From Myxococcota bacterium (GTDB lineage: Bacteria; Myxococcota; XYA12-FULL-58-9; JALHOP01), in NCBI GenBank assembly GCA_041288095.1, contig JBGGMJ010000023.1, positions 1 through 31,348 on the forward strand: a DNA stretch of 31,348 nt, read 5' to 3'. The notes below the pieces were generated by a model. That model was not told the origin of the DNA. It searched no databases and worked only from the letters and a program-made list of their open reading frames with translations. Made by a program: the position numbers and the translations under genes. Of the stretch, positions 246-31,348 are shown one piece after another (within the stretch, counting starts at the first letter, position 1; every line of letters starts with the position of its first letter).

Positions 246-269
246 GTCTGCTGTATGGTCCGCGCCGCG

Positions 270-3249: not shown

Positions 3250-4028
3250 TGCTCGCGACCGAGCACTTGGCCTTCGGTTACGGCAACCGGCGTGTGGGCG
3301 AAGACGTGAGCCTCGGTGTCGCGCCCGGGGAGATCGCCTGTTTGCTCGGCCCGAACGGCAGCGGCAAGACCACGCTCTTCAAGACTCTCCTCGGCCTCTT
3401 GCCACCCTTGGGCGGCACCATCCACATCGACGGCGCCGACGCCACCAACTGGACACCCCAAGCGCGGGCCCGGTCGGTCGCGTACGTGCCGCAAGCGGCG
3501 GCGACGAGTTTCGCCTACACCGTGCGCGAGATCGTCCTCATGGGCCGCGCCCCGCACCTGCCCGTTTTCGCGGTGCCATCGAAGACCGACCACGAAAAGG
3601 CGGAGAGCGCTCTCGCCCGCGTCGGCATCGCCGCCCTCGGCGCCCGTGTCGCCACCGAGCTGTCCGGCGGCGAGCGCCAGCTCGTGCTCATCGCCCGTGC
3701 CCTCGTGCAGGAATGCCGCACCATGATCATGGACGAGCCGACGGCGAGCCTCGATCTAGGTAACCGTGTGCGCGTGCTGTCGCAGCTCCGCCGCCTCGCG
3801 AGCGAAGGCGTGTCGGCGATCATCGCCACCCATGAGCCCGATCACGCGCTCGCTATCGCGGACCATGCGTTTCTCTTGAGCCAGGGCAGGCTCGTCGGCA
3901 GCGGCAAGCCCGCCGACGTGATCACCACCGAGAGCCTCTCGCGCCTCTACGGCGTCACCGTCGACGTCATCGAGAGCGCCGGCTCGCGGGTCACCGTGCC
4001 GCGGCTCGGTCCAATCGGTACAAGCTGA
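3249..4028 (+). CDS. FecE/BtuD-family ABC ATPase
   Basis: Walker A GPNGSGKTT, Q-loop AYVPQ, signature LSGGERQ, Walker B MDEPT, H-loop THE. Start set at ATG 3249 (TGATG overlap with the permease stop). Confidence 0.95.
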   Translation: MLATEHLAFGYGNRRVGEDVSLGVAPGEIACLLGPNGSGKTTLFKTLLGLLPPLGGTIHIDGADATNWTPQARARSVAYVPQAAATSFAYTVREIVLMGRAPHLPVFAVPSKTDHEKAESALARVGIAALGARVATELSGGERQLVLIARALVQECRTMIMDEPTASLDLGNRVRVLSQLRRLASEGVSAIIATHEPDHALAIADHAFLLSQGRLVGSGKPADVITTESLSRLYGVTVDVIESAGSRVTVPRLGPIGTS

Positions 4029-5580: not shown

Positions 5581-6431
5581 GGCAGCACCCAGGCATCGGC
5601 GCAGAAGTGGGCGCCCCCGTTGTCCCGTGACTTCACGGCAAGCACGATCGGTCCGCTACCGCGGTCGAGGTCGACGACGTCGTACTCCCAGCCGGTCCGA
5701 GGCATGACCTCGCCGCTGAAGAGCTTGGCCTCGCCGCGCCGCACCTCGACCTGGACCGGTGCACGCGTCGCGGCGGAGAGCACGAATCCATGTCCCAGCA
5801 GCAAGCGCGACCCCGACGTCTCGGGGAGGGTCAGCGTGAGCTCACGCCCGCCATTCAGCGGATGCATCCAGACGCAGGCCCGCGGCCCATCCTCGAGGTT
5901 CAATGTGGCGCGGCCTACCCAGCTCCATTCGCTGTCGCGCGGACAGCTCCAGCGCGAGCCATTCCAGCGCGAGCAAGCCGTCGGCTCGGTGCCGCCGTAG
6001 TGAGCGAGCACTTGCACGTCCGCGAGCCGTTCCCGCAGCGCCAGCGTCGGCTGCACCGGCTCACGCACCGTGACCGCGACAGCGTGCACACGCCCCGCGG
6101 AGGCAACCGGCGCGACCGACCCGAGCGCTTCGAGCTCCTCACGCAGCGCCCCGACCGCATCCACCGCCACCACCAGCAAGCGCGGGTGCATCCTCAAGAC
6201 CTGCGGCTCGACCCGGCGCGGCTCGATGAGCGGCAAATCTCCCAGCAATGTACGCGGTGTCGCCTGATGGAACGGCGTCACGACGATGAGGTCGCCCTCG
6301 CGATACGCCGAGCGAACCGCCGCCGCCACGGTCTCGAAGTCCGCTTGCGCCGCTACATGCGCGCACCGCGCCACCGACAAGACGACGCTCGCGACCAGCG
6401 CGACGAGCAGAGGAACGAGATGCGAACGCAC
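5577..6431 (-). CDS. Hypothetical membrane-anchored exported protein, Cys-containing
   Basis: GTG start, N-terminal hydrophobic helix, 4-nt overlap with the GT-C gene start; several Cys and Trp (CSRWNGSRWSC, CVWMHP, FCAD). Confidence 0.6.
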   Translation of the reverse strand: MRSHLVPLLVALVASVVLSVARCAHVAAQADFETVAAAVRSAYREGDLIVVTPFHQATPRTLLGDLPLIEPRRVEPQVLRMHPRLLVVAVDAVGALREELEALGSVAPVASAGRVHAVAVTVREPVQPTLALRERLADVQVLAHYGGTEPTACSRWNGSRWSCPRDSEWSWVGRATLNLEDGPRACVWMHPLNGGRELTLTLPETSGSRLLLGHGFVLSAATRAPVQVEVRRGEAKLFSGEVMPRTGWEYDVVDLDRGSGPIVLAVKSRDNGGAHFCADAWVLP

Positions 6432-6460
6432 GGCGCGTCTCTAGCAACTGCGCCGGCCCG

Positions 6461-7765
6461 CTACAAACGACTGAGGTTCCCGGCCATCCCGTAGCCAACA
6501 CCGATCACCCAATCCGAGACCGGCGTGACGATGCCGTCGTCGCCGGCGCGGACACCGTGATGCATCAGCGTGTAAGCAAACCACGCATCGTGAATGCGCA
6601 CGGCGCCGTCGAGGATCGCCATGCTGTTCGTGCCCATCGCGAACCAGTCGCCGCTGTCGCGCATCGCCCGTTGCGACACGCGCAAGCCGACGTGCCAGAT
6701 GTCGCTCGTCAGCTCGCCATAGAGCGACGCGCGCGTCGGGTTCTCCGCGGTCCGCGCGAAGGTGTGCTCGACAGAAGTGCCGAGAGTGAGCGGGCCGGTT
6801 TGAAACTCGACGCGACCGCGCGTGCCGTAGCCCGCGGGTGCAATCCGCATGGCCTTCGACTCCGAGCCCTCGCGGATGACGTTACGCTCCGCCGCGTACT
6901 GATCGTCGAAGTAGGCAGGGTCATAGCCCGCCCCGGCGACGGTCGCTTCGAGACGCAAGAGCAGCGCTTCACGGCCGCGCGTCCAGTTGAGCTCGGTGCC
7001 GATGTGCGTGCCGAGCGCGCCCGAGCGCGTCTCGGTGAAGAACGAGCCGAGCGAGCCATACAGCGACCACATGAGCTCGTCGCCGACATAGGGCGCCCCG
7101 GTGACCACGAGGTCCGCGCCGCCGATCTGCGTCGTCCCCTCGGTGATCGGCGCGCGCATATCGGTCGCCACTTCGAGCGCCACCGTGAGCGGCTCACCGG
7201 CGGACCTGTCATCGATCTGGAAGGGCGCGATGGCGATCGAGGCTGCGACGAGCCGCGGCCGGACCAAACCGTCCGTGAGGAGCTTTGCTTCGACGACGTC
7301 CGTGGTCACGAGGAAATCGAGCCCACTGCGCGGCATGCTCGGGTCGTAGCTGCCGGTGTAATCGTCGACCAAGGTGCCGTGGCCGAGGGTCTGCCGCCGC
7401 AGTCCGCCGGCGCGGAGCTGAATGGCGCCACGCTTCGAGCGGTACGTGAGATCTTCAATCCACGCGGCGTAGGTCTCGAAGTCGCTCCAGTCGTTCTGCC
7501 AGGTGACCGGCATCGTGCGGCTGTCAGCGGTCGGCGACTCGTCGGAGATCTTGAGGAAGAGCGGCGCCGAGAGGGCGACACGCAATTGCGACCCTTCGAG
7601 CGTCGCGCGCGGGCGGAACATCGCGACCGGATCCTCGCTCAAGCGGCCGCCACCGGCCTGCATGCTGAGGGTCCATTGCGGACCGGTCGGCTGCTCTTCG
7701 ACCGTCTGGGTGAGACCAGAAGGCGCTGAAGCCGTAAGCGCCACGATGAGGACCGCGGGGAGCAT
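6461..7765 (-). CDS. Hypothetical exported protein, probable outer-membrane beta-barrel
   Basis: Sec-type signal (MLPAVLIVALTASA); alternating amphipathic strands rich in G/Y/W/F; C-terminal WVIGVGYG strand; co-oriented with the neighbouring genes. Confidence 0.6.
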   Translation of the reverse strand: MLPAVLIVALTASAPSGLTQTVEEQPTGPQWTLSMQAGGGRLSEDPVAMFRPRATLEGSQLRVALSAPLFLKISDESPTADSRTMPVTWQNDWSDFETYAAWIEDLTYRSKRGAIQLRAGGLRRQTLGHGTLVDDYTGSYDPSMPRSGLDFLVTTDVVEAKLLTDGLVRPRLVAASIAIAPFQIDDRSAGEPLTVALEVATDMRAPITEGTTQIGGADLVVTGAPYVGDELMWSLYGSLGSFFTETRSGALGTHIGTELNWTRGREALLLRLEATVAGAGYDPAYFDDQYAAERNVIREGSESKAMRIAPAGYGTRGRVEFQTGPLTLGTSVEHTFARTAENPTRASLYGELTSDIWHVGLRVSQRAMRDSGDWFAMGTNSMAILDGAVRIHDAWFAYTLMHHGVRAGDDGIVTPVSDWVIGVGYGMAGNLSRL

Positions 7766-17687: not shown

Positions 17688-18133
17688 GGGAGCGGAAATT
17701 CCAGGTGCAGGTGCGTGACCGCTTCGGCGGTCGCCTTGCGGAGCTTCTCGGCGACTCGGTTGCGGTGGCAGGTTTCATGATCGGCCTCGAGGCAAAGGAG
17801 GCAGACGGTCCCGTGGGCCATGAGCTCTTTGGCGCGCTCGAAGTCCGCCTTGGCCTCGGCGGTGGCGAGCTGCTCGTCGACGATCTTCCAGAAGGTCTTC
17901 ATGTCGCCGCGCTTGTTGGCCTCGCGTCCCTCCTTGGGCGTGCCGAGGCCGCGCAGGTGCTCGTAAGCGATGCCCTCGGCGGCGAGGGCCAAGCTCAGCG
18001 CCTTCTTCGAGAAGCCGGGCCTCCTGCTCGCCGGGAGCTCACGCACGTCGATGAGGGTTTTGACCTTCACGCCCTTGAGCGCCTCGAGGAGCGTCTTCGG
18101 GGTCGCGCGCTCGTAACCGATGGTGAAGATCAT
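17684..18133 (-). CDS. DUF488-family protein
   Basis: IFTIGYE, LIDVR..P.SRRPGFSK..L...L...GIAYEHL..LG.P, CLLCLE.D...CHR; ATG 18133 overlaps the kinase stop (ATGA). Confidence 0.88.
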   Translation of the reverse strand: MIFTIGYERATPKTLLEALKGVKVKTLIDVRELPASRRPGFSKKALSLALAAEGIAYEHLRGLGTPKEGREANKRGDMKTFWKIVDEQLATAEAKADFERAKELMAHGTVCLLCLEADHETCHRNRVAEKLRKATAEAVTHLHLEFPLP

Positions 18134-19401
18134 GGCGTCGGAAGCCTCACGCTGAAACGGGCACCACCGAGCGTTGGGCTCTTGTCGGCGGTGATGCTGC
18201 CGTTGGCGGCGGTGACCAGGCTCTCGCATACCGAAAGGCCCAGGCCGGTGCCAATGCCCGCGGCCTTGGTCGTGAAGAAAGGCTCGAAGACTTTTGGGCC
18301 ATGCTCCGGGGCGATGCCGGGCCCGGAGTCGTCGACGGTGATGAGCGTGGCTTTGTCTTCCACGCTCGCGGCGATGACGATGCGTGCGTCCGCCGGTACG
18401 GCATCGAGAGCGTTGAGCGTTAGGTTGAGCAGCACCTGGGTAAGCGAGTCGGTGCTCATGGCGACCTGCTCGGTGCCCACCTTTGTCGCGACGGTCACGT
18501 TCTTCTTGCCGGCTTGCGGCTGAACGAGCTTGCGGACGTGCTCGGCGACATCGACCACCAGCGCGGTGCCGGCGACGCCGCTCGGCGCGCGCGCATAATC
18601 GAGCAAGTCGCGGACGGTCCCTTGGATACGCGCGAGCTCGCGCTCCATCCGCTGGAGCGCATCGTCGCGTTGGGGCTGGGGCAGGCTCGGGTCGCGAAGG
18701 GCCGAGGTGTAACCCGTGAGGACGGCCAAGGGGTTGCCGATCTCGTGCGCGAGCCCAGCGGCGAGCCGCCCCACCGCGGCGAGTCTTTCGGCGCGCACCA
18801 AGCGATCACGCGTCTCCTCGAGCTGGCGATGGGCGACGGTGAGGTCGGCGAGCTGCTGCTCGATACGGCGGCGGTCGGCGAAACTTTGCTCGATGGGCTG
18901 CAAGACGCTGCGGCGCATGAAGCCTAGCGCGATGAGCGTGATGAGCCCGGCGGTGAGCGCGACCAGCGCCAGCACCCGCGGCTGCCGCGCCAGCACCATG
19001 TCGATGGTCTCCTTGAGCGGACGCGACGCAATCACATGGAGCCACGGCTTCGCGGTCGTCCGCATGGCGAGGCTTTCGTAGCCCTCGGCCACCAGCGGCG
19101 CGCTCGCGAACACGTACTTCGCGAGCTGAGGCGCGGAGTGACTCTGCACCAGGCGTCCGTCATCGCCGACGAGGGTGATGACGATGCCGTGCTCCGCCCC
19201 CATGCGCGCGACGTAGGGCTCGACCTGCGCGAGCGCCGGCAGCTCCGCGGCCACTCGCGTCGCGACCCACGCAAGCTCGTGCTGTCGCTGGCGCGCCAGC
19301 GTCCGCTGACCGTCGAAGATATAAAGCAGGTCGAGGATGATGAGCCCGACGAGCGCCGCCACCATGAGGCTGAAGCCGATGCGTGCCGAGAGCGCGTTCA
19401 T
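18130..19401 (-). CDS. Membrane sensor histidine kinase (NtrB-like; positional equivalent of Myxococcus PilS2)
   Basis: Two TM helices, ERLAAVGRLAAGLAHEIGNPL (H box), QVLLNL..NALDA, DSGPGI, FEPFFTTK..G.GTGLGL; ATG 19401 overlaps the pilD stop. Confidence 0.9.
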   Translation of the reverse strand: MNALSARIGFSLMVAALVGLIILDLLYIFDGQRTLARQRQHELAWVATRVAAELPALAQVEPYVARMGAEHGIVITLVGDDGRLVQSHSAPQLAKYVFASAPLVAEGYESLAMRTTAKPWLHVIASRPLKETIDMVLARQPRVLALVALTAGLITLIALGFMRRSVLQPIEQSFADRRRIEQQLADLTVAHRQLEETRDRLVRAERLAAVGRLAAGLAHEIGNPLAVLTGYTSALRDPSLPQPQRDDALQRMERELARIQGTVRDLLDYARAPSGVAGTALVVDVAEHVRKLVQPQAGKKNVTVATKVGTEQVAMSTDSLTQVLLNLTLNALDAVPADARIVIAASVEDKATLITVDDSGPGIAPEHGPKVFEPFFTTKAAGIGTGLGLSVCESLVTAANGSITADKSPTLGGARFSVRLPTP

Positions 19402-20216
19402 TGGACGAGCGGCAAGAGCGCCGTCGCGATACGCGTGGGGATGTCCGCGAAAACGTCCGGCACGAGCATGAGCTCGTAGGTCGCGAGCGCAAGGAACGGT
19501 CCGAACGGAATAGCGCGCGGGTGCGGCACCCAACCATCGTCGCTCGCCGGCTGCGGCGCGGTCTTGTGTCCGCCAGTGGCGATGACGATGACGCCGATGA
19601 TCGCGCCTTGCGTCGCAGCGAAGAACAAAGCGGTCACCGCCCCCATGGGCCCAAGGAGCAAGCCCATGAGGGCGAGGAGCTTCACGTCACCGAGCCCCAG
19701 GCCTTCGCGCTTGGTGACCTTCAAGAAGGCCCACGCGAGGGCCCAGAGCATGAGCGCCGGTGCGAGCCCGAGGAGCGCCGCCAGCCAGCCGATGCCACCG
19801 GGCAGGAACGAGCCGGCGAGCGCCCAGCCCATGGCCGGATAGGTGAGCACGTCGGGAACCCACCAGTGGTCGATGTCGAGGAAGACGATGGCGAGGAGAA
19901 TGGCCGCGATGGGAAACCATACGAGGAGCTGCCAGGTGAGCCCGAGCTGTACGTAGGAGGCCGCGCCGATGCAGCCCATGAGCAGCTCGATGAGCGGATA
20001 GCGCGCGCTGATCGGCGCCTTGCAGTTGCGACACTTGGCGCGGAGCACGACCCAGCTCACGAGCGGTATGTTGTCGTACCAAGCGATCTGCTTTTGGCAA
20101 TTGGGGCACCGCGATCGCGGACTGACGACGGACAGACCCTCGGGTAGACGGCCGATGACCACGTTCAAGAACGAGCCGACGACGGCACCGACGACGCCGA
20201 AGTAGAGGGCGAACAT
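19398..20216 (-). CDS. pilD: Prepilin peptidase / N-methyltransferase
   Basis: GSFLNVVI.RLP, PRS.CP.C...I.WYDNIP..SW..LR.KCR.C..PIS.RYP.IE, catalytic FLDID and GLGDVKL, IPFGPFLA. Confidence 0.96.
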   Translation of the reverse strand: MFALYFGVVGAVVGSFLNVVIGRLPEGLSVVSPRSRCPNCQKQIAWYDNIPLVSWVVLRAKCRNCKAPISARYPLIELLMGCIGAASYVQLGLTWQLLVWFPIAAILLAIVFLDIDHWWVPDVLTYPAMGWALAGSFLPGGIGWLAALLGLAPALMLWALAWAFLKVTKREGLGLGDVKLLALMGLLLGPMGAVTALFFAATQGAIIGVIVIATGGHKTAPQPASDDGWVPHPRAIPFGPFLALATYELMLVPDVFADIPTRIATALLPLVQ

Positions 20217-20238
20217 CCAGTCCGCTATGGGGAGTGCT

Positions 20239-22020
20239 TCACTTGAAATAGTCGTATCCCTCGTGCTCGAGCCTGCCGACCGCGCCGTCGCAGAGCCTGG
20301 GGTCGGCTACCTCCAGCTCGCAAGCGCCTCGTAAACAAGGGACGCAGTACGGAACTCGCGCCAGGCCATCCATGAATGCCTGATGGGCTCCCTGCTTGTC
20401 TCCCTTGGCGAGGAGGTCCTTGCCCCGTGCGAGGTAGTACACGGCGTACTCGGCGAAGATCTCTTTCGTGTCGACATAGTCCGACGAGCCAGCGCGATAC
20501 ACCGGCGGCGTCGGATTGAGCGGCGGCACGTCCGCGATAACAGACCCGGCCCCAGCCGTAAGGGCGCGACCGACGGGGTAATAAGTCGTCTTGCCGCGCG
20601 GAGAGGTGAACGGCATGACGTGGGTGATCGAAAACGCCTCCATGTTGGGCGCGAGGAACTGCGCGTAGATGTCCATCTTCACGCGCGTCCGCACCTTCTC
20701 CTCGTCGTAGTACAGGTGTGGCCAGCGCTTCTTCGCTCGCTCGAGGAGTCGCCGGTCGAAGGTCATGGAACGCGGCAGGATGAAGACATCGTCATACCCG
20801 GGCTCGGTCGCCTGCACGTATCGGGCGCCGAAGAACTTGGTGTCCGAATCGACGATGACGATGGCTGGAGTGCGCTGGCTCACGGCCGTCTTCAGGAGAT
20901 TGCGCATGTACTCTTCGACGACCACATCGCGGCGCAGCCCATAGGTGTCGCCGATCGCGCACTGGACCAGCGCAAGCAGCGCCGTCGCCAGGAGCAATCC
21001 GTGCTGAAACGAAACTCTCAGCGTGTCGACCGATGCGGTGACCGCGAGCGCGGTGAGCATCAGGATGGGTAGCAGAAAGAAGCGCTCGCGCAGGAGCACG
21101 GCGTTGCTGTCGTCACCTGCCAAGTTCATGCGCGGGACGAAAACAAACAGGTAGAGAGCAAGACAGCCGAGCAGGACCCACCAGCTCTGGTGCTCGCGCA
21201 TCGGCCGAGCCTTGGCGGCCCCGAGACCTAAGAGCGCCAACGCCGGGAGGCCGAAGGGTCCAACGGTAACGACGAGGTCGCGAGTCACGGCGCCGATGTT
21301 CGCGACACCGCCGCCGGTGCTCAAGTTGAAGGTACCGTAGTCACGGCGAAGGAAGTGATGGAGGACACCACGGAAGCTCGTCACGCTCCCCCAAGAGTTC
21401 ACGTGCTCCGTATCGAGCAGAGGCAACGACGCATAGAGCGCGACGGAAATGGCTGCGCCAACGAGGAGCGCCGCTCCGCCCCGCAAGCGATTCGGCTCCT
21501 GCCAGACGATGAGCAAGAGCAGCGGCGCGAGAAAGACGATCGAATGGTGATTGCCCGCGGCGAGCCCGAAGACGGCGGCGGCGACGAAGGGTCGGGTCTT
21601 GCTCGCCGGCGAGAAAGCGAGCGCGATGAGCGCGGCCGCGAGCACCTGGTTGAGCCCGAAAACGTCGGGAAGCACGGCGTAGCGCCAGATCGCGGGCAAG
21701 GAAGCCATGGCCGCTATAGCGGCAACACCAAGCCAGCGGCGGCAGACGCGAAGCAAGAACGCGGCGGCGCCCAGGGCGCAGATCGCGGTGATCAGCGCCG
21801 CGCGAAAGAAGACCGTGCTCACGGGCACGGCCTTCATGAGCGCGTGATAGAGCCAAACGTAGAGCGGGTAGCCGGGCGCGTGCGGGACCGTCAGCCCCCA
21901 CGCACTCGTGACGAGCTCACCGCTATCGAGGGTCTGCACCGCGTGGGGCAGGCTCGCGAAGTAGATCGCGGCCAACGGCAACAGCAGCCACCAGCGGTAC
22001 CTCAAGAAGCGGTCACTCAA
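20239..22020 (-). CDS. DUF2723/TMEM260-like GT-C glycosyltransferase, copy 2
   Basis: TM followed by QTLDSGELV.......HAPGYPLY, F.RAA, PDVFGLN, GL..GNHHS, HFLRRDYGTF.L, RERFFL; C-terminal helical region and PYCVPCL...C. Start uncertain; TTG 22020 overlapping the upstream stop region is assumed. Confidence 0.85.
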   Translation of the reverse strand: MSDRFLRYRWWLLLPLAAIYFASLPHAVQTLDSGELVTSAWGLTVPHAPGYPLYVWLYHALMKAVPVSTVFFRAALITAICALGAAAFLLRVCRRWLGVAAIAAMASLPAIWRYAVLPDVFGLNQVLAAALIALAFSPASKTRPFVAAAVFGLAAGNHHSIVFLAPLLLLIVWQEPNRLRGGAALLVGAAISVALYASLPLLDTEHVNSWGSVTSFRGVLHHFLRRDYGTFNLSTGGGVANIGAVTRDLVVTVGPFGLPALALLGLGAAKARPMREHQSWWVLLGCLALYLFVFVPRMNLAGDDSNAVLLRERFFLLPILMLTALAVTASVDTLRVSFQHGLLLATALLALVQCAIGDTYGLRRDVVVEEYMRNLLKTAVSQRTPAIVIVDSDTKFFGARYVQATEPGYDDVFILPRSMTFDRRLLERAKKRWPHLYYDEEKVRTRVKMDIYAQFLAPNMEAFSITHVMPFTSPRGKTTYYPVGRALTAGAGSVIADVPPLNPTPPVYRAGSSDYVDTKEIFAEYAVYYLARGKDLLAKGDKQGAHQAFMDGLARVPYCVPCLRGACELEVADPRLCDGAVGRLEHEGYDYFK

Positions 22021-23818
22021 GGTAGTGGTACTCGCTTTCTTGCAGGTCCTGGAGCGCCTGACCGCAGCGCTCGTCGTGTTGCCCATCGAGAGTGCAGAAG
22101 TTCTTCAGACACGGGATGCAGTAAGGCACGCGCATGAGACCGCCGAGAAAGGCGCCCTTTGCCCCCTCGGCGTCGCCTTGCGCGAGCAACGCCTTGCCGC
22201 GCGCCAAGTGCTGGACGGCGTAGTCGGCGAAGAGCTCTTTCGTCTCGACGTATTCCTTGTTGTCCGCCCTGAAGACCGGAGGGCGTATGACCACGGGCGC
22301 ATCGGCGATGGCGACGCCCATTCCGGGCTCGATGCGTCTACCCAGTGGATAGAACGTCGTCCTCCAGCTCGGATTGGTGACGGGCACCACCGAGAGGACG
22401 GCGAAGGCTTCGAGGTTGGGAGCAATGAAACTGCGAAAGACACCGCGGCGGTCGCCTTCGAAGATCTCTTTCACGTCGTAGACGAAAGCGGGCCAGCGCG
22501 CCTTCATCTTCTCCAGACGGTCGACAAGGAAGATGTTTCCCATGCCGAAGAACGTGACGTCGTCGTAACCTGACTCGACTGCCTTCAAATAATACGACGC
22601 GAAGAGCTGAGTGTCCGTTTCGACGAGCACGAGGGCGGGCTTGCCGGTGCTCTTCGCCGTGTCCAGGAGGTTGCGGACGTAGTCTTCGACGACCGTGTCC
22701 TCGCGCAGACCGTAAGCGTCGGAGGTGGCGACTTGCACGACGGTGAGTAACGTCATGGTGCCCGCCAAAGCGGTCATTGCCCGAGGCACCCGGCGTGAAA
22801 CGACGACGACACGCACCGCGAGCGCCGCGAGCAAAATCATCGGAAACAAGAAGAAGCGCTCGCGTACGCCATCGTGGAGCGCATGCGCCCCCGAGTTCAT
22901 CCGCGGAAAAAACGCCGCGATGTAGGCGATGAGGCAAGCCAGTGCGAGCCACCACGTACGCTGCCCTCGCTCCTTCCAGGTGCCGGCGTATTGCGCGCCA
23001 CCGGCGACGATGACCACCACGGCGGCGACGCCGAATGGACCGCAGGCGCGCGCGAAAGCGCCGAGGACCCAGCTCACGTCCGCCTCGGTCTGGTAGCCGC
23101 TGAGCTGGAAGGTCCCGTACGAGCGCCGGAGAAAATGGTCCACGACGTCCGCGGGGCCGCGCAGAGTGGCCCACGCGGACAGGGACGCGCTATCGAGCGC
23201 CAGGAGAGACGCATAGAGGCCCACCGTGATTGCGCACCCCGCCGCGAGCGCTATGCCCGCGCGAGCGCGGGACGGCTCCTCGAGCGCGACGACGAGTAGC
23301 AGCGGTAACAAGAAGATGATCGACTGATGATTGGCGGCGCCCAAGCCGAACGCCATAGCGGCACCCCAAACCCGAAGGCGGCTCGGGCCCGCGAAAGCGA
23401 ATGTGACCAGTGCCATCGTCAACAGCAGGTGCAAGCCGAAGACATCCGGCAGCACCGCGTAGCGCCAAACGAGCGATGTCGTCCCTACCGCGGCCACCAA
23501 CGCGACAGCGATCCACGAGCGAGCGATGCGCAGCAACAGAGCCATCGTCGCCAGCGCGCAGAGCGCGTTACCCAGAGCCGCGCGATGAAACACGCTGCCC
23601 CACGGGCACAGCTTCATGAACGCGTGCTGCAACCAAACGAAGAGCGGATACCCCGGCGGGTGCGCGAGCGTCAGCTTCCAGGCGGCGGCGACGACCTCAC
23701 CTGTGTCGAGCGTCTGGACGGTGCTCGGCAGAGATACGCAATAGAGGACGGCGAAGCCCACGAGGAGCAACCATCGCAGGCGCCACGCCCGCGGCTCGTG
23801 TGTGTGCTGCTCCTGCAT
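22013..23818 (-). CDS. DUF2723/TMEM260-like GT-C glycosyltransferase, copy 1
   Basis: QTLDTGEVV.AA..L.LAHPPGYPLF, PDVFGLH, GL..ANHQS, HFLRRSYGTF.L, RERFFL, PYCIPCL...C; colinear with the downstream paralogue. Start ATG 23818 assumed. Confidence 0.87.
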   Translation of the reverse strand: MQEQHTHEPRAWRLRWLLLVGFAVLYCVSLPSTVQTLDTGEVVAAAWKLTLAHPPGYPLFVWLQHAFMKLCPWGSVFHRAALGNALCALATMALLLRIARSWIAVALVAAVGTTSLVWRYAVLPDVFGLHLLLTMALVTFAFAGPSRLRVWGAAMAFGLGAANHQSIIFLLPLLLVVALEEPSRARAGIALAAGCAITVGLYASLLALDSASLSAWATLRGPADVVDHFLRRSYGTFQLSGYQTEADVSWVLGAFARACGPFGVAAVVVIVAGGAQYAGTWKERGQRTWWLALACLIAYIAAFFPRMNSGAHALHDGVRERFFLFPMILLAALAVRVVVVSRRVPRAMTALAGTMTLLTVVQVATSDAYGLREDTVVEDYVRNLLDTAKSTGKPALVLVETDTQLFASYYLKAVESGYDDVTFFGMGNIFLVDRLEKMKARWPAFVYDVKEIFEGDRRGVFRSFIAPNLEAFAVLSVVPVTNPSWRTTFYPLGRRIEPGMGVAIADAPVVIRPPVFRADNKEYVETKELFADYAVQHLARGKALLAQGDAEGAKGAFLGGLMRVPYCIPCLKNFCTLDGQHDERCGQALQDLQESEYHYLE

Positions 23819-23843
23819 CGGCACCAAAAGACTACTCCGGCGA

Positions 23844-23891
23844 GTGACGGAGTTTGTCACCGCTGGGGTCGCGGGCGACAGTTTTTGTCAC
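23844..23891. promoter_or_regulatory. Two tandem palindromic enhancer sites (probable PilR binding sites)
   Basis: GTGAC-GGAGTTT-GTCAC (23844-23860) and GCGAC-AGTTTTT-GTCAC (23875-23891), both with a 7-bp spacer, 31 bp apart, upstream of the sigma-54 box. Confidence 0.7.
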
Positions 23892-23941
23892 CACGCGAAT
23901 CGCTAGACGGCTTAGCTAAGGTTTTTTGCCTAAGTTGTCGT

Positions 23942-23958
23942 TTGGCATTACGGTTGCT
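23942..23958 (+). promoter_or_regulatory. Sigma-54 (-24/-12) promoter of pilA
   Basis: TTGGCATTACGGTTGCT: GG at 23944-45, GC at 23956-57 (GG-N10-GC), close to consensus TGGCAC-N5-TTGCW; about 90 nt upstream of the pilin ATG. Confidence 0.9.
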
Positions 23959-24047
23959 CACAGGAGCAGCCGAGCACGGACGTGATTCACACGACGCGCA
24001 CTTCAATTCTTCACATCATCGGAACTGCTGTCAGGAGCACATCGACA

Positions 24048-24533
24048 ATGCGCAAGCTGCAAAAAGGATTCACCCTCATCGAGCTCATGATCGTCGTAGC
24101 GATCATCGGCATCTTGGCGGCTATCGCCATCCCGAACTTCGTCCGCTTCCAGGCAAAGTCGAAGCAGTCGGAAGCCAAGGCAAACCTCAAGGCCATCTTC
24201 GTCGCCAAGAAGTCGAACTTCGCCGAGAACGACACCTTTGCTTGCAACCTCTGTAACTTCATCCCGGAGTCGGGCAACCGCTACACCTACAACGGTGGTG
24301 CCTCGAGCTACGCTTCGCAGAAGCCGGCATCGACCTACACCGGCGCGAGCGTGACGAGCGCCGCGGAGACCGCGACGAGCTTTACCGCCACCGCGATGGG
24401 CAACGTCGATACGGACGCCACCATCGACGGCTGGGAGATCAACGATCAGAACGCGCTCTGCAACGGAACCCGCGGCTCGGCGACCGCGTGCAGCACGGCG
24501 ACGCCGCAGCCGGCTGACGACGTCAGCCTCTAG
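24048..24533 (+). CDS. pilA: Type IVa major pilin (copy 1)
   Basis: AGGAG site at 24033-37; [54 protein letters not shown] and GNVD.D...D.W.I motifs typical of Myxococcus-type pilins. Confidence 0.95.
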
Positions 24534-24546
24534 TTCACCCGTGAGT

Positions 24547-24578
24547 GGAAAGGGCGCGTCATGGAATGCGCCCTTTCC
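24547..24578 (+). terminator. Stem-loop after pilA1 (terminator or attenuator)
   Basis: Perfect 11-bp inverted repeat GGAAAGGGCGC-N10-GCGCCCTTTCC starting 13 nt after the pilA1 stop; only a short U tract. Confidence 0.75.
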
Positions 24579-24600
24579 TGCTTACTGTGAGGGGTTGGCC

Positions 24601-25083
24601 ATGGACGGAAGGCGTAACGGCTTCACGCTCATTGAGCTGATGATCGTCGTCGGCATCATCGGCATCCTGGCTGCTATAGCAATCCCGAACTTCGCCCGCT
24701 TCCAGGCAAAGTCGAAGCAGTCGGAAGCCAAGGCGAACCTGAAGTCGATCTTCGTCGCCAAGAAGTCCTACGCGGCCGAGTTCGATACGTTCATTTGCGG
24801 CATGGCGAACTTCGTTCCGGAGCCGGGCAATCGCTACACCTATCGCGGCGGGGGCTCCGCGGTGTTTGCCTCGCAGAAGCCGGTGAGCACGTACACGGCC
24901 TCGACGGTCGAAGCAGCATCGGAGGCCGACTCCGCCTTCATCGCGACGGCAGCCGGCAACGTCGACGCGGACGCCTTCGTCGACGCCTGGCGCATCGACG
25001 AGATGAATCTCCTCTGCAATGGCACCGCTGCCTCAGCGACCTCTTGCACGGCGCCCGCGCAAGGTGACGATCTAGCGAACTGA
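24601..25083 (+). CDS. pilA: Second type IVa pilin, close paralogue of pilA1
   Basis: [48 protein letters not shown]; colinear with pilA1 to the C-terminus; GAGGGG upstream of ATG 24601. Confidence 0.9.
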   Translation: MDGRRNGFTLIELMIVVGIIGILAAIAIPNFARFQAKSKQSEAKANLKSIFVAKKSYAAEFDTFICGMANFVPEPGNRYTYRGGGSAVFASQKPVSTYTASTVEAASEADSAFIATAAGNVDADAFVDAWRIDEMNLLCNGTAASATSCTAPAQGDDLAN

Positions 25084-25084: not shown

Positions 25085-25999
25085 GTGAAGCGGCTCCTGG
25101 TCATCGGCGCACTCGTGACGTTTGCTGGTCTCGCGCATCTGCTCCATGTGCGACTCGACCAAGCCCTGCTCACCGCGCCGGACGAGCTCGTCGAGACTCT
25201 GCCCACCGTGGGCTCGCTGCAGCTCATCAGCCTGGGCTACGACCAGGTCGTCGCCGACTACTACTGGATGCGCGCGCTCGAGCACTTCGGCACGCCGGCC
25301 TACAACGCGGTTGCGTATCCCCTGCTCGAGCCGCTGCTGCGGCGCGTGCTGACGCTCGACCCCTATTTCAAGACCGCCTACACGTTCGCCGGCACGGCGC
25401 TCACGGTGCAGCGGATGGATCCCGCGAAGGCGAACGCGCTGCTCGAGCAAGGCCTCACGTACCGGCCCGACGTCTGGCAGATCCCGTACTTCCTCGGCTT
25501 CAACCGCTACTACTTCCAGCAGGATTACGTTGGCGCCGCCGAGGCGTTGAGCATCGCCTCCAAATATCCGGACGCTCCCCCACTCACGGCGCAACTGGCG
25601 ACGCGCATCGCGGCGCACGCCGGCCGGCCGGACGTCGGCATCCAGCTCATCGACGAGATCCTCGAGCGCACCAAGGACGAGCAGCTACGCGCGAGCTACA
25701 TCGAGCGGCGCAAGGCGCTGCAGCTCGATCTCGAGCTCGGCTACTTGAACCGCCTCGTGCCGCGCTACCTGAGCGAGCACGGGAAGGCCCCAACGGCGAT
25801 CGGAGACTTCGTGAAAGCCGGCTACCTTCGCGAGCCACCACGCGATCCCTATGGCAAAGAGTACCGCCTCGATAGCGATGGTTTCATTCACACCGAATCC
25901 GAGGGCTCGCGCCTGCGCTTGAAACCGCAGGCTGCCGGCTCCATTTTTGCGGACGGCTGGCATCCTCCGTATCGTGAAGACCAGTTGCCACCCGAATGA
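25085..25999 (+). CDS. pilG: Pilus accessory membrane/TPR-like protein (Myxococcus PilG-type)
   Basis: N-terminal TM, GY..VVADYYW.RA...FG, LDPYF..AY.FAG, LLE.G....PD.WQIPY.LGF..Y, P.DPYG..Y; located between pilA and the ABC genes as in M. xanthus. Confidence 0.8.
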   Translation: MKRLLVIGALVTFAGLAHLLHVRLDQALLTAPDELVETLPTVGSLQLISLGYDQVVADYYWMRALEHFGTPAYNAVAYPLLEPLLRRVLTLDPYFKTAYTFAGTALTVQRMDPAKANALLEQGLTYRPDVWQIPYFLGFNRYYFQQDYVGAAEALSIASKYPDAPPLTAQLATRIAAHAGRPDVGIQLIDEILERTKDEQLRASYIERRKALQLDLELGYLNRLVPRYLSEHGKAPTAIGDFVKAGYLREPPRDPYGKEYRLDSDGFIHTESEGSRLRLKPQAAGSIFADGWHPPYREDQLPPE

Positions 26000-26928
26000 G
26001 TGTCCTAACCGTCGATAACCTCACCTACTCGGTGAAACCGCACTTCTGGTCGAAGACCACCCAGATCTTGAAGGGCGTCACCTTCGCGGTCGCCGAGCGC
26101 GAAATCTTTGGCTTCCTGGGACCGAACGGCGCCGGCAAGACCACCACAATCAAGGCGATCCTCGGCTTGCTGCAGCCGGATGGTGGCGACATCCGGCTCT
26201 TCGGCCGCCCACCGACCCAAGCTTCGAGCCGCGCCAAGCTCGGTTTCTTGCCGGAGCGTGCCTACTTCTCCGAGCACCTCAGCGGCCGCGAGGTGGTCAT
26301 TGCGCACGGCCTGCTCGCCGGCTTGTCGCGGCACGATGCCAAGACGCGAGCGCAAAAGCTGCTCGAGCGCGTGGGCCTGGCCGCTGCGGCGGACAGACGC
26401 TTGAAAGGTTACTCCAAGGGCATGCTCCAGCGTGTCGGCATCGCCCAAGCGTTGGTGTCGGAGCCCGCGCTCGTCGTCTTCGACGAGCCGATGAGCGGCC
26501 TCGACCCGCTAGGCCGCGCCGATGTTCGCGACATCATGCTCGAGCTGCGCGCCAAGGGCACGACGGTGTTCTTCTCGACGCACATTCTCCCCGACGCCGA
26601 GATGATCTGTGACCGCGTCGCCATCGTGATGAACGGCCGCACCACTCGCGTCGGCAAGCTCGCTGAGCTCGTACCGGTATCGGGCCAGGGCGTCCAGATT
26701 GTCGTCGCCGCGCTGCCGGCCGACCAACGTAGCGCGCTCTCGTCCATCGCCGCGCGCATCGAGGAGCGGCCTGAAGCCGTGGTCTTGCACATGCGTGACC
26801 TGAAGAGCGCCAACAACGCCGTCGATACGCTACGCAAAGCCGGCATCGACATCGTCGAGATGCACGGCCAGCGCTCCTCGCTCGAGGACTTGTTCATCGC
26901 CGACGCGAAAGGAGCGAAAGCGTCATGA
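25996..26928 (+). CDS. pilH: ABC transporter ATPase of the pilus locus
   Basis: GFLGPNGAGKTT, YSKGMLQRVGIAQAL, DEPMSGLDPLGR, FSTHIL.D.E..CDRV, SLEDLF; synteny pilA-G-H-I. Confidence 0.88.
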   Translation: MSVLTVDNLTYSVKPHFWSKTTQILKGVTFAVAEREIFGFLGPNGAGKTTTIKAILGLLQPDGGDIRLFGRPPTQASSRAKLGFLPERAYFSEHLSGREVVIAHGLLAGLSRHDAKTRAQKLLERVGLAAAADRRLKGYSKGMLQRVGIAQALVSEPALVVFDEPMSGLDPLGRADVRDIMLELRAKGTTVFFSTHILPDAEMICDRVAIVMNGRTTRVGKLAELVPVSGQGVQIVVAALPADQRSALSSIAARIEERPEAVVLHMRDLKSANNAVDTLRKAGIDIVEMHGQRSSLEDLFIADAKGAKAS

Positions 26929-27707
26929 ACGACCTGCGCGCCGCCGCCGTCGTCGCCTGGACCACGACGCTCGAAGCACTCCGCAACAAGCTCCTGCTCA
27001 TCGCCCTTGCTTTCGGCATCGTCCTCGTCGGCCTGTCCGTTACAGCGGCCGCCGTCGCCATCGGCGAACGGGCGCGGCTCATCGTCGACATCGGCCTCGG
27101 CGCCGCGAGCGTCATCGGCAGCGCCATGACCATTGCGCTTGCGGTCGTGAGCTTCGCCGGCGAAATCTCGAAACACACGGCGTTCCCGGTCCTCGCCCGC
27201 CCCATGCCGCGCTGGGCCTTCATCCTGGGCAAGTATCTCGGCGTCGTCTTCGCGATGTGGGCCGTGGTCAGCACCATGGTCATCGCCACCGCGGTGACGA
27301 CGTGGATCTACGGCGACCCAGTCCCCACGGCGTTGTGGATCCAATGGCCGCTCGCGCTCGTCGAAGTCGCCGTCGTCGCCGCCATCGCGCTCATGTTCTC
27401 GACGATGGCCGTGCCCGCTTTAGCGGCCTCATACGCCGCCGGCATCATCGTCGCCGGCGGTCTCGCGGACGACGTCATGCGCATCGCCAACCGTCAGATC
27501 GCGGACGGCAAGAGCACCGGCTACGTGTTGCGCCTCGCCTATTACTTCTTGCCCGACCTGCAGAACCTCTCGGTCCGCGGCCAAGCCGCCAACGCCTTGC
27601 CGGTCCCCGGGGCCTTCGTGGGCTTCGGGGTAGGTTACGGCGTGGTCTACGCGGCGGTCGTCTTGATGGTGGCGATGGTGGTGTTCACCCGTCGCCGGGC
27701 CATCTAG
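26925..27707 (+). CDS. pilI: ABC transporter permease of the pilus locus
   Basis: About 6 TM helices; EA.RNK, D.GLG, EI...T....LARP..R..FILGKYLG, YY.LPDL, F.RR terminus. Confidence 0.85.
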   Translation: MNDLRAAAVVAWTTTLEALRNKLLLIALAFGIVLVGLSVTAAAVAIGERARLIVDIGLGAASVIGSAMTIALAVVSFAGEISKHTAFPVLARPMPRWAFILGKYLGVVFAMWAVVSTMVIATAVTTWIYGDPVPTALWIQWPLALVEVAVVAAIALMFSTMAVPALAASYAAGIIVAGGLADDVMRIANRQIADGKSTGYVLRLAYYFLPDLQNLSVRGQAANALPVPGAFVGFGVGYGVVYAAVVLMVAMVVFTRRRAI

Positions 27708-28160: not shown

Positions 28161-28670
28161 TCAGCGCGCCGCGATGATCCATTCGCAGATGTCGCGCACC
28201 GCGCCATGACCGCCGAGGCGGACTGTGTGGATGCGCGTGGCGGCGAGGACCTCGGGCTCGGCGTCGGCCACCGCGATTGCGGTGCCGGCCCAACCGAGAC
28301 AGTCGAGGTCGTTCACGTCGTTGCCGACGTAGGCTACGTCCGCCTGCGCGAAGCCGAGCTCCGCCATCCAGGCAATGAGCGCGGGCAGCTTGTCGTCCAC
28401 GCCCTGGCGGCAAGGGATGCTCAGCTTCTTGCAACGCGCCGACACCACGAGGTTCTGCTCCTTCGAGAGCACGGCGCAGAACACGCCCGCGGCGCGCAGC
28501 CGGCCGACACCCATGCCATCCCCGCGAGAGCAACGCACCGACTCGACGCCGTTTTGATCGACGTAGACCGCGTTGTCGGTCATGACGCCGTCGAAGTCGA
28601 AGACCACCGCGCGAATGCGGCCTGGCTCGACGCGCGTGCCGGGCGCTATGACGACGCGCGGCGTGCTCAC
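28161..28670 (-). CDS. KdsC-family (C0 HAD) ulosonate-phosphate phosphatase
   Basis: VFDFDGVMTDN, RGDGMG, LSKE, R..KL.I...QG..DK, YVGNDVND, AVADA, GG.GAVRDICE; GTGA overlap with hldE. Confidence 0.85.
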   Translation of the reverse strand: MSTPRVVIAPGTRVEPGRIRAVVFDFDGVMTDNAVYVDQNGVESVRCSRGDGMGVGRLRAAGVFCAVLSKEQNLVVSARCKKLSIPCRQGVDDKLPALIAWMAELGFAQADVAYVGNDVNDLDCLGWAGTAIAVADAEPEVLAATRIHTVRLGGHGAVRDICEWIIAAR

Positions 28671-30130
28671 GAGCCGCGCATCTTTTCGACGATGCGGGTG
28701 GTCGAGCGGCCCTCGACGAGGGGTACCAGCACGAGTCGTCCACCCTGGCGCTCGACGGCCTCACGACCGACGACGCTCGACGGCGCGTAGTCGCCGCCCT
28801 TCACCAGGACGTCGGGGGTGCAAACATCGATGAGCGCGTAAGGGGTGTCCTCGTCGAAGACGACCACGGCGTCGACGCTCTCGAGAGCCGACAGTATCAT
28901 CGCGCGCTCGTCTTCCCCGATGACCGGCCTGCCCTCACCTTTGAGGCGCCGCACCGATGCGTCGCTGTTGATGGCGACGACCAGCACATCGCCTTCGGCG
29001 CGCGCCTGCCGCAGCAAGCTCACGTGGCCCGCGTGCAGAACGTCGAAGCAGCCGTTGGTGAGCACGACCTTCTTCTTCTGCAAGCGCCACCAGGCCATGC
29101 GCTCGCCTAGCTCATCGCGCGTCAGGACCTTGCTCTCGAGGGACGGCGCGCAGGCCGCGAGCAGCTCTTGGGGGACCACCACGGCCGTGCCGACCTTCTC
29201 GACGACCAACCCGGCGGCGATGTTCGCGAGCTCGGCGGACACGGTGAGCGGTAAGCGGGTCGCAAGCCCCAAGGCGAGCATGGCGATGACGGTGTCGCCG
29301 GCGCCGGTCACGTCAAAGACTTCGCGCGCGGCCGCCTGGATGTGCAGCGATGGCCCGTCGCGCGGGACCACCATCATGCCGTTTTCGCCGAGCGTGACCA
29401 CCATGGCGTCGCACTCGGAGCGCATCACCAGCGAGCGCGCCCCACCCTCGACGGTGCGTAGGTCGCCGACCTGACTACCGGAGGCCGCCGCCAATTCCTT
29501 GGCGTTAGGCGTGATCACGGTGGCGCCACGGTAGGCCTCGAAGTCATTGCGCTTGGGGTCGACGAGCACCGGCACGCCCTGCTTGCGGGCCCAAGCGATC
29601 ATGTGTGCGATAGCGGTGTCGTTCAAGGTGCCCTTGGCGTAGTCGCTGAGCACGATGACGTCGGGCGGCTCCCCCGAAAGCTTTTCGAACGCGGCGATGA
29701 TCGGCGGCGCGGGATACGGGCGCACTTCTTCCCAGTCGAGGCGCAAGACGTGTTGGTGGCGCGCAACCACGCGCAGCTTGCGTGTGGTCGGACGGGCGCT
29801 GTCGACGATGAGCCCGTCGCAGCCGATGCCGGCCGTGGCGCAAGCCATGCGCACCTGCTCGCCGGAGGGGTCGCTGCCGATGACGCCGATCAGCTCGACG
29901 TGAGCGCCGAGCGACGAAACCCCGTGCGCGACGTTCGCGGCTCCGCCAAGGCGGACATAGGCGTCGGAGACGTTCACGACCTGCACCGGCGCGTCCGGCG
30001 AGATTCGGCGCACGTCACCGGTGATGTACTCGTCGAGCATGACATCGCCGACGACCCACACTCGGGCGCCCGCGAAGGCCTTCACCACGTCGCGTAGGCC
30101 GCTGGCCGACAGCTCAAGCCTCGTCGTCAT
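28667..30130 (-). CDS. hldE: Bifunctional heptose-7-phosphate kinase / heptose-1-phosphate adenylyltransferase
   Basis: GDVMLD.Y..G...RISP.APV, GGAANVA, SDYAKG, VDPK, TPN..E, DVTGAGDT; then TNGCFDVLHAGH, NSDASV.RLKG..RP, LVKGGDY, STT. Start ATG 30130 within the pilR 3' end assumed. Confidence 0.95.
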   Translation of the reverse strand: MTTRLELSASGLRDVVKAFAGARVWVVGDVMLDEYITGDVRRISPDAPVQVVNVSDAYVRLGGAANVAHGVSSLGAHVELIGVIGSDPSGEQVRMACATAGIGCDGLIVDSARPTTRKLRVVARHQHVLRLDWEEVRPYPAPPIIAAFEKLSGEPPDVIVLSDYAKGTLNDTAIAHMIAWARKQGVPVLVDPKRNDFEAYRGATVITPNAKELAAASGSQVGDLRTVEGGARSLVMRSECDAMVVTLGENGMMVVPRDGPSLHIQAAAREVFDVTGAGDTVIAMLALGLATRLPLTVSAELANIAAGLVVEKVGTAVVVPQELLAACAPSLESKVLTRDELGERMAWWRLQKKKVVLTNGCFDVLHAGHVSLLRQARAEGDVLVVAINSDASVRRLKGEGRPVIGEDERAMILSALESVDAVVVFDEDTPYALIDVCTPDVLVKGGDYAPSSVVGREAVERQGGRLVLVPLVEGRSTTRIVEKMRGS

Positions 30131-31348
30131 CACCCTCGCCCTCGCCACCCTGCATGCCGAGCTTCTTCAAGCGATAGCGCAACGAGCGGAACGTGAGTCC
30201 CAACAGCTCCGCGGCGCGTGTCTTGACGCCGGCGCTCTTCTCCAGCGCTTGCTGGATGAGGCTGCGCTCCAGTGCATCGAGGGTCGCTTCGAGGTTCATG
30301 CCCTGCTCGGGCAAGGTCATGGCGCTCGAAGGCGCGCTCGACGCCGCCTTGCGTACCTCGTCGGGCAGATCAGTGAGCTCGATGACCGGCCCGCCCGCCA
30401 AGGCCACGGCGCGCTCGACCACGTTTTCGAGCTCGCGGACATTACCGGGAAAGGGAAAGCTCTTGAGCGCGTTCATGGCGGCGTCGTTGAAGCCCTCGAG
30501 GGTCTTCCCCAGCTCGCTCGCGAACTTCGCCAGGAACGTACGCGCGAGGAGCGGCACGTCGTCGCTGCGCTCGCGCAACGGCGGTACGCGAATGCGGACG
30601 ACGTTCAAGCGATAAAACAGGTCCTCGCGGAACTTTCCCTGCTGCGCCATCTGCTGCAGGTCGCGATTGGTCGCGGCGACGATGCGCACGTCGACCTCGC
30701 GTTCCTTCTCTTCGCCGACGCGGCGCATGGAGCGCTCTTGGATGACGCGCAAGAGCTTCACCTGCATGGGCTGCGGCAGCTCGCCGATCTCGTCGAGGAG
30801 CAAGGTGCCGCCGTGGGCCGTCTCGAACAGACCGGCGCGCGCTTTGGTGGCGCCGGTGAAGGCGCCTGCCACGTGCCCGAACAGCTCGGCCTCGATGAGG
30901 GTCTCGGGGATGGCGCCGCAGTTGACCGCGACGAAGGGCCCGGCGGCGCGCGGCGACGCGTCGTGGATGGCACGGGCAACCAGCTCCTTGCCGGTGCCGC
31001 TCTCGCCTTCGATGAGCACGTTGGCGCGCGACTTCGCGACCTTCTCGATCATCGCCACCAGCTCGGTCATCCGCGGACTGCGGCCGACGATGTTGGTGAA
31101 CCCATAGCGCCCCTGCAGCTGCCCGATGAGCTCGCGGTTCTCGCGGATGAGCTCACGCTTCTCGAGCGCCTTCTGCGTGAGGACGCGGATCTCGTCCATC
31201 TTGAAGGGCTTGATCTGGTAGTCGTAGGCGCCCAGCCGCATCGCCGACACCGCGTTCTCGGTGGTCGCGAAGGCGGTCATGATGATCACCTGGGTCTCCG
31301 GCAGCGCCTCGCGCACGCCCGTGAGCACCTCCATGCCCGAGCCGTCGG
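30114..31348 (-). CDS. pilR: Sigma-54-dependent response regulator (PilR-like), 5' end outside the window
   Basis: REC remnant (IIMTAFA, GAYDY.IKPF), [68 protein letters not shown] typical of PilR; the frame stays open to the window edge. Confidence 0.85.

Follow-up and report, generated by a model that had tools for sequence, protein, structure and literature searches.

What do two membrane-bound glycosyltransferases modify when their genes lie between a pair of type IV pilin genes and the gene of the prepilin peptidase? This question is raised by contig JBGGMJ010000023.1 (C23) of a Myxococcota bacterium (assembly GCA_041288095.1). The window analysed here is the entire contig (31,348 bases), which belongs to a 5.85-Mb genome that is 90% complete and has a G+C content of approx. 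66%. The two enzymes, designated GT1 and GT2, are, to judge from their sequences, inner-membrane GT-C glycosyltransferases of the TMEM260 family, and they probably act as polyprenyl-phosphate-sugar-dependent O-glycosyltransferases of the pilins PilA1 and PilA2. The evidence for their family membership and for catalytic competence is as strong as sequence data can make it, and it is the gene neighbourhood alone that points to the pilin, most simply, as the acceptor. The locus comprises the following features (ORF, open reading frame):

18130-19401, minus strand: sensor histidine kinase, PilS2-like by position, with Pfam matches HisKA and HATPase_c; the listed ORF extends to 19533
19398-20216, minus strand: pilD, prepilin peptidase / N-methyltransferase, with Pfam matches A24_N_bact (E 1e-34) and Peptidase_A24 (E 1.8e-11)
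20239-22086, minus strand: GT2, 615 amino acids, paralog of GT1
22013-23860, minus strand: GT1, 615 amino acids from a GTG at 23860, with an alternative in-frame ATG at 23818
23861-24047, no strand: divergent intergenic region between GT1 and pilA1, holding a sigma-54-type promoter-like element
24048-24533, plus strand: pilA1, likely ATG at 24048 (ORF 23982-24533), with Pfam matches N_methyl and Pilin_PilA
24601-25083, plus strand: pilA2, likely ATG at 24601 (ORF 24541-25083), with Pfam matches N_methyl and Pilin_PilA

On the minus strand the gene order is GT1-GT2-pilD-kinase, and this run stands head-to-head with pilA1-pilA2. All of the features listed in a preliminary description of this DNA are present in the sequence, so that its observation is confirmed: the tandem membrane protein genes start on the strand opposite to pilA1 at a distance of 187 bp (from the GTG of GT1) or 229 bp (from the ATG), where approx. 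230 bp had been given; the stop codon of GT2 is separated from the start of pilD, on the same strand, by 22 bp; and the motifs that had been written as D[S/T]GE...H[AP]PGYPL[YF] are D52-T-G-E and H67-PPGYPLF in GT1, and D54-S-G-E and H69-APGYPLY in GT2. The ATG of GT2 overlaps the 3' end of GT1 by 74 nucleotides, and a start at the TTG of codon 23 would leave almost no overlap. According to the coordinates, the likely ATG of the kinase gene (19401) overlaps the stop codon of pilD as ATGA.

The identity of GT1 and GT2 as TMEM260/DUF2723-type GT-C enzymes, previously read from these motifs, is borne out by profile, by direct match and by residue. A hidden Markov model search for the family, which had been proposed as a check, placed both proteins above the curated threshold of Pfam PF11028 (TMEM260-like, formerly DUF2723; cut-off 24.2 bits), GT2 with 45.9 bits and GT1 with 37.2 bits. 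Human TMEM260 (9rql_A) was matched directly in phmmer searches with GT1 (E 2.5e-19, residues 34-418) and GT2 (E 2e-27, residues 37-456), and a profile of 80 relatives (alignment A3) matches full-length 9rql with an E-value of 2.9e-153. The two paralogs are 46-47% identical to each other. Six residues are described as necessary for activity or donor binding in the human enzyme, namely D52, H67, R264, Y267, R355 and D441 (bioRxiv 10.64898/2026.03.17.711096), and all of them are kept: in HMMER alignments their partners are D52, H67, R245, Y248, R335 and D416 in GT1, and D54, H69, R247, Y250, R335 and D415 in GT2. Across the 80 family members D52, H67, G70 and P72 are invariant, and orthologues across the genus are 61-77% identical in every domain. 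The enzymes of another Myxococcota family (f10; loci L142-L158) carry the variant motifs D-[SG]-P-E and H-P-P-G-S, compared with D-S-G-E and H-P-P-G-Y.

Structure prediction, the second check that had been proposed, was run on GT1 and gives a confidently modelled GT-C fold. The AlphaFold2 model (predicted local distance difference test, pLDDT, 90.7; predicted template modelling score, pTM, 0.91) consists of a multi-helix membrane core, a beta/alpha domain with strands in residues 409-518, and a C-terminal module of four helices with four cysteines that are conserved in both paralogs. When this model was compared by Foldseek with a set of Protein Data Bank (PDB) structures that does not contain 9rql, and which for this reason returned no TMEM260, all seven matches with E <= 0.001 were GT-C enzymes that use lipid donors (ALG12, ALG9, ArnT, AftA). 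For the ESM Atlas model of GT1, the nearest structure is a chordate TMEM260 cluster, with a TM score of 0.85 over residues 34-607.

The proposed acceptors, PilA1 and PilA2, have the predicted features of major type IV pilins (PilA): a class III signal peptide (KGFTLIELM and NGFTLIELM, respectively), a hydrophobic N-terminal helix and a C-terminal cysteine pair. The PilA1 prepilin has 161 amino acids, of which 154 remain in the mature protein, with four cysteines; the PilA2 prepilin has 160 amino acids and is 66% identical to PilA1 in an alignment of both with the pilins of three related loci (A4; L023-L025). The NCBIfam model typeIV_PilA_Myxo matches both proteins below its cut-off (PilA1, E 1.5e-36, N-terminal part only; PilA2, E 1.7e-32). 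The preliminary description had pointed to C-terminal halves dense in serine and threonine. Locally this is correct, and clearly so in PilA1, from which the peptide quoted there was taken: the two residues make up 19.5% of the mature protein, 25 of the 94 residues of its C-terminal part and 11 of the 30 at positions 91-120, within a Ser/Thr-rich stretch that extends over mature residues 76-115 approximately. The claim does not clearly extend to PilA2 (14.4% of the mature protein; 16 of 93 residues in the C-terminal part) or to overall content, which is unremarkable genome-wide. Among 4544 long ORFs with high G+C at third codon positions, a comparison set that contains some spurious frames, the mean is 13.4%, and the values of PilA1 and PilA2 are reached by 13.5% and 24.8% of the ORFs, respectively. 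Ser/Thr richness was therefore abandoned as a diagnostic of glycosylation. A structure prediction of PilA1 from eight sequences reached a pLDDT of 46.4, so that its head domain is unusable for mapping the Ser/Thr-rich stretch, and a prediction of the complex between GT1 (with A3) and mature PilA1 (with A4, residues 8-161) scored 0.00 twice, without controls, which counts neither way. As a separate observation, a C-N-G-[TS] motif (PilA1 residues 138-141), which reads as an N-x-S/T sequon, lies inside the C-terminal cysteine loop and is kept in all eight genus pilins of A4.

A six-frame search of the genome found exactly two PF11028 matches, both at this locus, where the only two PilA-type pilin genes of the genome also lie; other pilin-like genes are located on contigs C138, C181 and C197, and pilB-pilT-pilC on a separate contig, C140. 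By a rough estimate, random placement in a 5.85-Mb genome would bring a gene pair to less than 1 kb from the two pilA genes in approx. 1 of 2000 cases. The layout, in which one or more pilA genes face one or two GT genes followed by pilD and the kinase gene, is kept in all four genus genomes. Both GT paralogs are present in three of them, and in the fourth (G002) only a GT2-type gene lies between pilA and pilD. The pilin:GT ratios are 2:2, 3:2, 2:1 and 1:2, and these argue against one enzyme per pilin, an arrangement that had been suggested earlier and is contradicted by the gene counts in the four genomes; it was consequently rejected. In the genome without GT1, the pilins have fewer serines and threonines directly after a conserved Q-K-P motif (n = 4 genomes).

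How far this linkage extends was analysed at the level of loci, genomes and phylogeny. In a wider scan with a five-sequence alignment as the query, the best 80 of 455 stretches encoding relatives, from diverse phyla, were kept as 79 loci. Of the 73 loci that span the 1-kb bin concerned, 12 have an ORF with a pilin motif that ends less than 150 bp upstream of the GT gene and in the same orientation, whereas the remaining 1-kb bins out to 7 kb contain such an ORF in 0-5 of 36-78 loci. Pfam analysis of 105 ORFs from 14 loci confirmed the GT in all 14 and an N_methyl pilin in 13, with the order pilB-pilT-pilC-pilin-GT in seven Patescibacteria-type loci and sigma-54 activator-pilin(s)-GT in five Myxococcota-type loci. 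The remaining locus, L035, belongs to a different family of the phylum, and its pilin-like ORF, which has no Pfam match, overlaps the start of the GT gene by 4 bp. In an even sample of the phylum, the PF11028 family occurs in 37 of 201 genomes (a count that includes G186, which lies outside the 49 places examined), and a pilin was found within 4.5 kb at 18 of 49 places: 12 in f10, 5 in f1 (the genus considered here) and 1 in f11.

In a quick maximum-likelihood tree of 110 full-length proteins, from which truncated and over-long ORFs (including the pilin-linked L047, L111 and L114) were left out, GT1 and GT2 each cluster with their own orthologues within one clade of the genus (100*), and hence the duplication is older than the genus. 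The pilin-linked proteins are distributed over at least four separate clades (Patescibacteria; f10 with f11; the genus here; and a Polyangiales/Labilithrix group), and the starred branches force at least five changes of the pilin-linked label. The link to pilins is thus not a one-off; it is recurrent but far from universal. In the genus it appears to have arisen as a separate event, with its own divergent, pilD-joined layout. The survey of synteny that the preliminary description had recommended therefore gives a divided answer, since linkage holds in 4/4 genus genomes and in several clades, whereas the sister clade of the genus and most members of the family are unlinked.

Some additional features were noticed at the loci of relatives. 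In f10, a space of approx. 2.7 kb separates the pilin from the GT gene in 12 loci (L142, L144, L145, L147-L151, L154, L156, L158 and L164). Between the pilin and the TMEM260-like gene, one family of the Myxococcota encodes a membrane protein of approx. 650 amino acids with C-terminal TPR repeats (4947-6914 in L045, 4703-6682 in L112), and further pilin genes converge from the opposite side. It gave TPR matches only and no match to a GT-C family, is unrelated to A3 (hhalign probability 12%) and has no homologue in the genome studied here. In five Patescibacteria-type loci (L075, L077, L097, L103 and L104), a YfhO-like GT-C gene of approx. 730 codons converges on the TMEM260-like gene from the opposite strand; in L103 it is adjoined by a small gene of glycosyltransferase family 2 and a methyltransferase gene, possibly a donor arm. 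A different genome of the phylum likewise carries a tandem pair of TMEM260-like genes, at L153 (G112:C7, 38787 and 40592), with no pilin in the 14 kb that were analysed there.

If GT1 and GT2 glycosylate the pilins, the following mechanism can be proposed. A cytoplasmic enzyme of glycosyltransferase family 2, encoded elsewhere in the genome, would load the sugar, perhaps mannose by analogy with human TMEM260, on undecaprenyl phosphate, and the lipid would then be flipped. Each GT would draw its sugar from this lipid. The donor would be held by the aspartate in D-[ST]-G-E together with the histidine in H-P-P-G, and a second aspartate, located in the periplasmic domain (D416 in GT1, D415 in GT2), would serve as the base that activates the acceptor hydroxyl. 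In an inverting transfer, the sugar would then pass to hydroxyls of the exposed, Ser/Thr-rich region of the pilin while it is anchored in the membrane, either ahead of or at about the time of PilD cleavage and pilus assembly. The pilin would be the simplest acceptor, as its N-terminal helix keeps it in the same membrane and its head domain extends into the periplasm. Between the two old paralogs a difference in site or sugar is probable, rather than service to one pilin each, and the modification could conceivably alter pilus surface properties or mask the pilus from pilus-specific phages.

The supply of the donor must be sought outside the window. As the preliminary description had noted, no lipid-linked donor synthase is encoded there, at least none detected in the Pfam scan of the window proteins. 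The genome has 15 places matching PF00535, of which 13 were scanned against NCBIfam; four family 2 enzymes (L121, L122, L127 and L128) resemble polyprenyl-phosphate sugar synthases, all with scores below the NCBIfam cut-offs, and none of the four is tied to the pilin locus. Searched with the family 2 enzyme of the pilin-linked Patescibacteria locus L103, this genome gave no more than a weak match (E 4.2e-7). A GtrA/DPMS-type domain occurs once in the genome (G000:C172, 3073-4323; L167, 631-1881), fused to a CDP-alcohol phosphatidyltransferase, and a search for a stand-alone GtrA found none.

The interpretation put forward in the preliminary description, that these enzymes glycosylate the pilins, has therefore survived in part: a GT-C family with intact residues and a recurrent linkage to pilins uphold it, whereas the pairing of one enzyme with one pilin and the argument from Ser/Thr content have been given up. 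A number of facts weigh against it. The Ser/Thr content of the pilins is not unusual for the genome, which makes the argument based on it weak. The GT genes here are divergent from pilA, unlike those of the other linked clades, which are co-directional; neither a donor synthase nor a flippase is linked to the locus; and genomes from a single genus are not independent evidence. The four-helix, four-cysteine module at the C-terminus of the GT1 model is unlike the five-helix TPR of human TMEM260, which suggests that the choice of acceptor cannot be inferred by homology to the human enzyme. No pilin is in view at 31 of the 49 phylum-sample places or for 77 of the 110 proteins in the tree, so that the family as a whole needs other acceptors or acts on the products of unlinked genes. 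Even the sister clade of the genus (three Bdellovibrionota, 100*) has no pilus genes in the 9-12 kb around each of its members, whose neighbours are housekeeping genes. The latter observations, together with the apparent lack of conservation here of the TPR module through which the human enzyme achieves its specificity for one fold, favour an explanation in which GT1 and GT2 are active glycosyltransferases with a main acceptor other than the major pilin, such as envelope or periplasmic proteins, minor pilins, parts of the pilus machine or a surface glycan, and lie among the pil genes for the sake of co-regulation. It is also consistent with this explanation that the co-transcribed pilD serves all prepilin-type proteins, including, potentially, the products of the pilin-like genes on C138, C181 and C197. 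Nonetheless, it is rather unlikely, because pilin-GT adjacency recurs in several clades and in three gene arrangements, and because this genome has no family genes other than the two that adjoin its sole pair of PilA genes.

If the acceptor is the pilin, GT1 and GT2 might still form one obligate heterodimer, as yeast Pmt1-Pmt2 do, and their tandem, overlapping genes, the retention of both paralogs in three of the four genus genomes and the dimeric function of PMT-type O-mannosyltransferases (PDB titles 6p25, 9i5k) would agree with this. Such an obligate partnership is quite improbable, given that G002 has a GT2-type gene alone between pilA and pilD, that every catalytic residue is kept in both paralogs, and that human TMEM260 was solved with C1 symmetry. 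It is more improbable still that the neighbourhood is functionally meaningless or that the two proteins have a non-catalytic role, as pilin chaperones or assembly accessories. The genes are divergent from pilA, and in Pseudomonas non-enzymatic pilin accessory genes are described as adjoining pilA (PMC11841053); however, the six functional residues are kept in both paralogs and their orthologues, the degree of identity across the genus is maintained in all domains, and linkage that recurs in distant clades, along with the low estimated chance of such a placement, speaks against a neighbourhood without meaning. Of these readings, glycosylation of the pilins by the two enzymes has the best support.

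The remaining genes of the window provide the context of the locus. Downstream of the pilins and towards the end of the contig, the following features were identified:

25085-27707, plus strand: three genes 3' of pilA2, in an order kept in the genus
from 25085, plus strand: protein of 304 amino acids, first after pilA2, without a family in Pfam or NCBIfam; pilG-like by position only
25996-26928, plus strand: ABC ATPase, Pfam ABC_tran (E 8.8e-29)
26925-27707, plus strand: ABC-2 membrane protein, ABC2_membrane_2 (weak match, E 6.5e-4)
30114-31334, minus strand: sigma-54-dependent response regulator (PilR-like) at the contig end, with Sigma54_activat (E 2e-75), HTH_8 and a partial Response_reg

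As with GT1 and GT2, no NCBIfam model matched the pilG-like protein. We take the layout of this pil cluster to resemble that of Myxococcus xanthus, where pilG, pilH and pilI come after pilA and where pilA depends on PilR and sigma-54; the labels pilG/H/I for the three genes 3' of pilA2 are likewise presumed from M. xanthus. A sigma-54-type promoter-like site, TGGCATTACGGTTGC, is present at 23943-23957 on the plus strand, approx. 90 bp 5' of the pilA1 ATG, with one mismatch to the pattern. Across the window, 27 matches with at most two mismatches were found compared with 31.8 expected, which is not above chance, and so for TGGCATTACGGTTGC only its position is suggestive. No promoter of the divergent GT1 operon was identified. 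Elsewhere in the window, three overlapping genes at 3991-7765 (minus strand) end in a second, unrelated GT-C gene (PMT_2, E 6.1e-6, 3991-5580), the first two of the run (6461-7765 and 5577-6431, minus strand) having no Pfam or NCBIfam match. Genes for the heptose chemistry of the outer-membrane core are located at 120-1301 (plus strand), 28161-28670 and 28667-30148 (both minus strand); this set, consisting of a GT9 heptosyltransferase, a HAD-type phosphatase and a bifunctional PfkB kinase / cytidylyltransferase (HldE-like), is probably unrelated to the pilin locus.

In the literature searched, no published link of the TMEM260/DUF2723 family to pili was found and, in agreement with the preliminary description, no established acceptor of a bacterial DUF2723 member. 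With regard to bacteria, the 2023 paper on TMEM260 states merely that distant homologues exist. As far as their available text goes, the paper on the structure of the M. xanthus pilus refers to glycosylation just broadly, and a preprint on Saccharibacteria pili predicts sites of pilin O-glycosylation and does not name the enzyme. Within this context, it may tentatively be suggested, with a likelihood somewhat short of even, that, in addition to PglL/TfpO and TfpW, the bacterial TMEM260 family forms a third class of enzymes dedicated to pilin O-glycosylation, and a widespread one; that type IV pilus loci have recruited it independently on several occasions; that in the genus here an old duplicate pair, transcribed together with pilD, provides the pilin with two distinct modifications within a single maturation module; and that the animal enzyme stems from a bacterial family in which some members modify pilus subunits. 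If pilin glycosylation by GT1 and GT2 is true, the pilin would be the first acceptor for the bacterial relatives of a human disease gene, and a new enzyme family would join the routes of pilus glycosylation, a modification that affects adhesion and motility as well as how sensitive cells are to pilus-specific phages. Specificity for site or sugar could be tested naturally on the tandem paralogs, and the myxobacterial case may be easier to test than that of ultrasmall uncultured bacteria. Related myxobacteria are cultivable and genetically tractable.

Among known systems, PglL and TfpO (PilO) of Neisseria and Pseudomonas aeruginosa 1244 carry out periplasmic O-glycosylation of pilins by a membrane enzyme whose gene often adjoins pilA. 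These enzymes are of the Wzy_C type and transfer a preassembled oligosaccharide linked to undecaprenyl pyrophosphate, whereas GT1 and GT2 have no Pfam match to Wzy_C at E <= 0.01, and their family transfers one sugar, taken from a monophosphate lipid. The logic of donor supply expected for GT-C enzymes such as GT1 and GT2 is that of three-component periplasmic glycosylation, in which a GtrB-type polyprenyl-phosphate sugar synthase and a GtrA-type flippase act together with a GT-C transferase (PMC11127046). However, the pilin locus contains the GT-C part only, the candidate synthases are encoded elsewhere, and no stand-alone GtrA was detected.

Human TMEM260, a protein-specific O-mannosyltransferase (PDB 9RQL/9RQM/9RQN; PMC10214176; bioRxiv 10.64898/2026.03.17.711096), shares with GT1 and GT2 the Pfam family, a direct sequence match and the six residues discussed above. 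To judge from the GT1 model, the overall architecture may be shared as well, with a GT-C core in the membrane, a non-cytoplasmic beta/alpha domain and a tail of helical repeats. The human enzyme resides in the endoplasmic reticulum and uses dolichyl phosphate, whereas GT1 and GT2, in the bacterial inner membrane, would use undecaprenyl phosphate; its five-helix TPR with an asparagine ladder corresponds to their shorter tail of four helices and four cysteines; and its acceptor is the IPT domain, compared with the proposed pilin for two tandem paralogs.

By analogy, the closest working model for the action of GT1 and GT2 would be TfpW of P. aeruginosa group IV (Pa5196, PA7), a GT-C enzyme encoded adjacent to pilA that is reported to attach D-arabinofuranose oligomers to serines and threonines of the pilin and to have 11 helices and a periplasmic TPR domain (bioRxiv 10.1101/2020.04.19.049825). 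In both cases a GT-C enzyme is encoded beside the major pilin gene, the start of GT1 lying close to that of pilA1 on the opposite strand. As far as the available description goes, the motif of TfpW is DDX and its model was based on ArnT, whereas GT1 and GT2 carry D-[ST]-G-E...HPPGYP; tfpW is situated directly downstream of pilA and its product requires the D-Araf (DprE1/DprE2) pathway, whereas GT1 and GT2 are two genes, divergent from pilA and joined to pilD.

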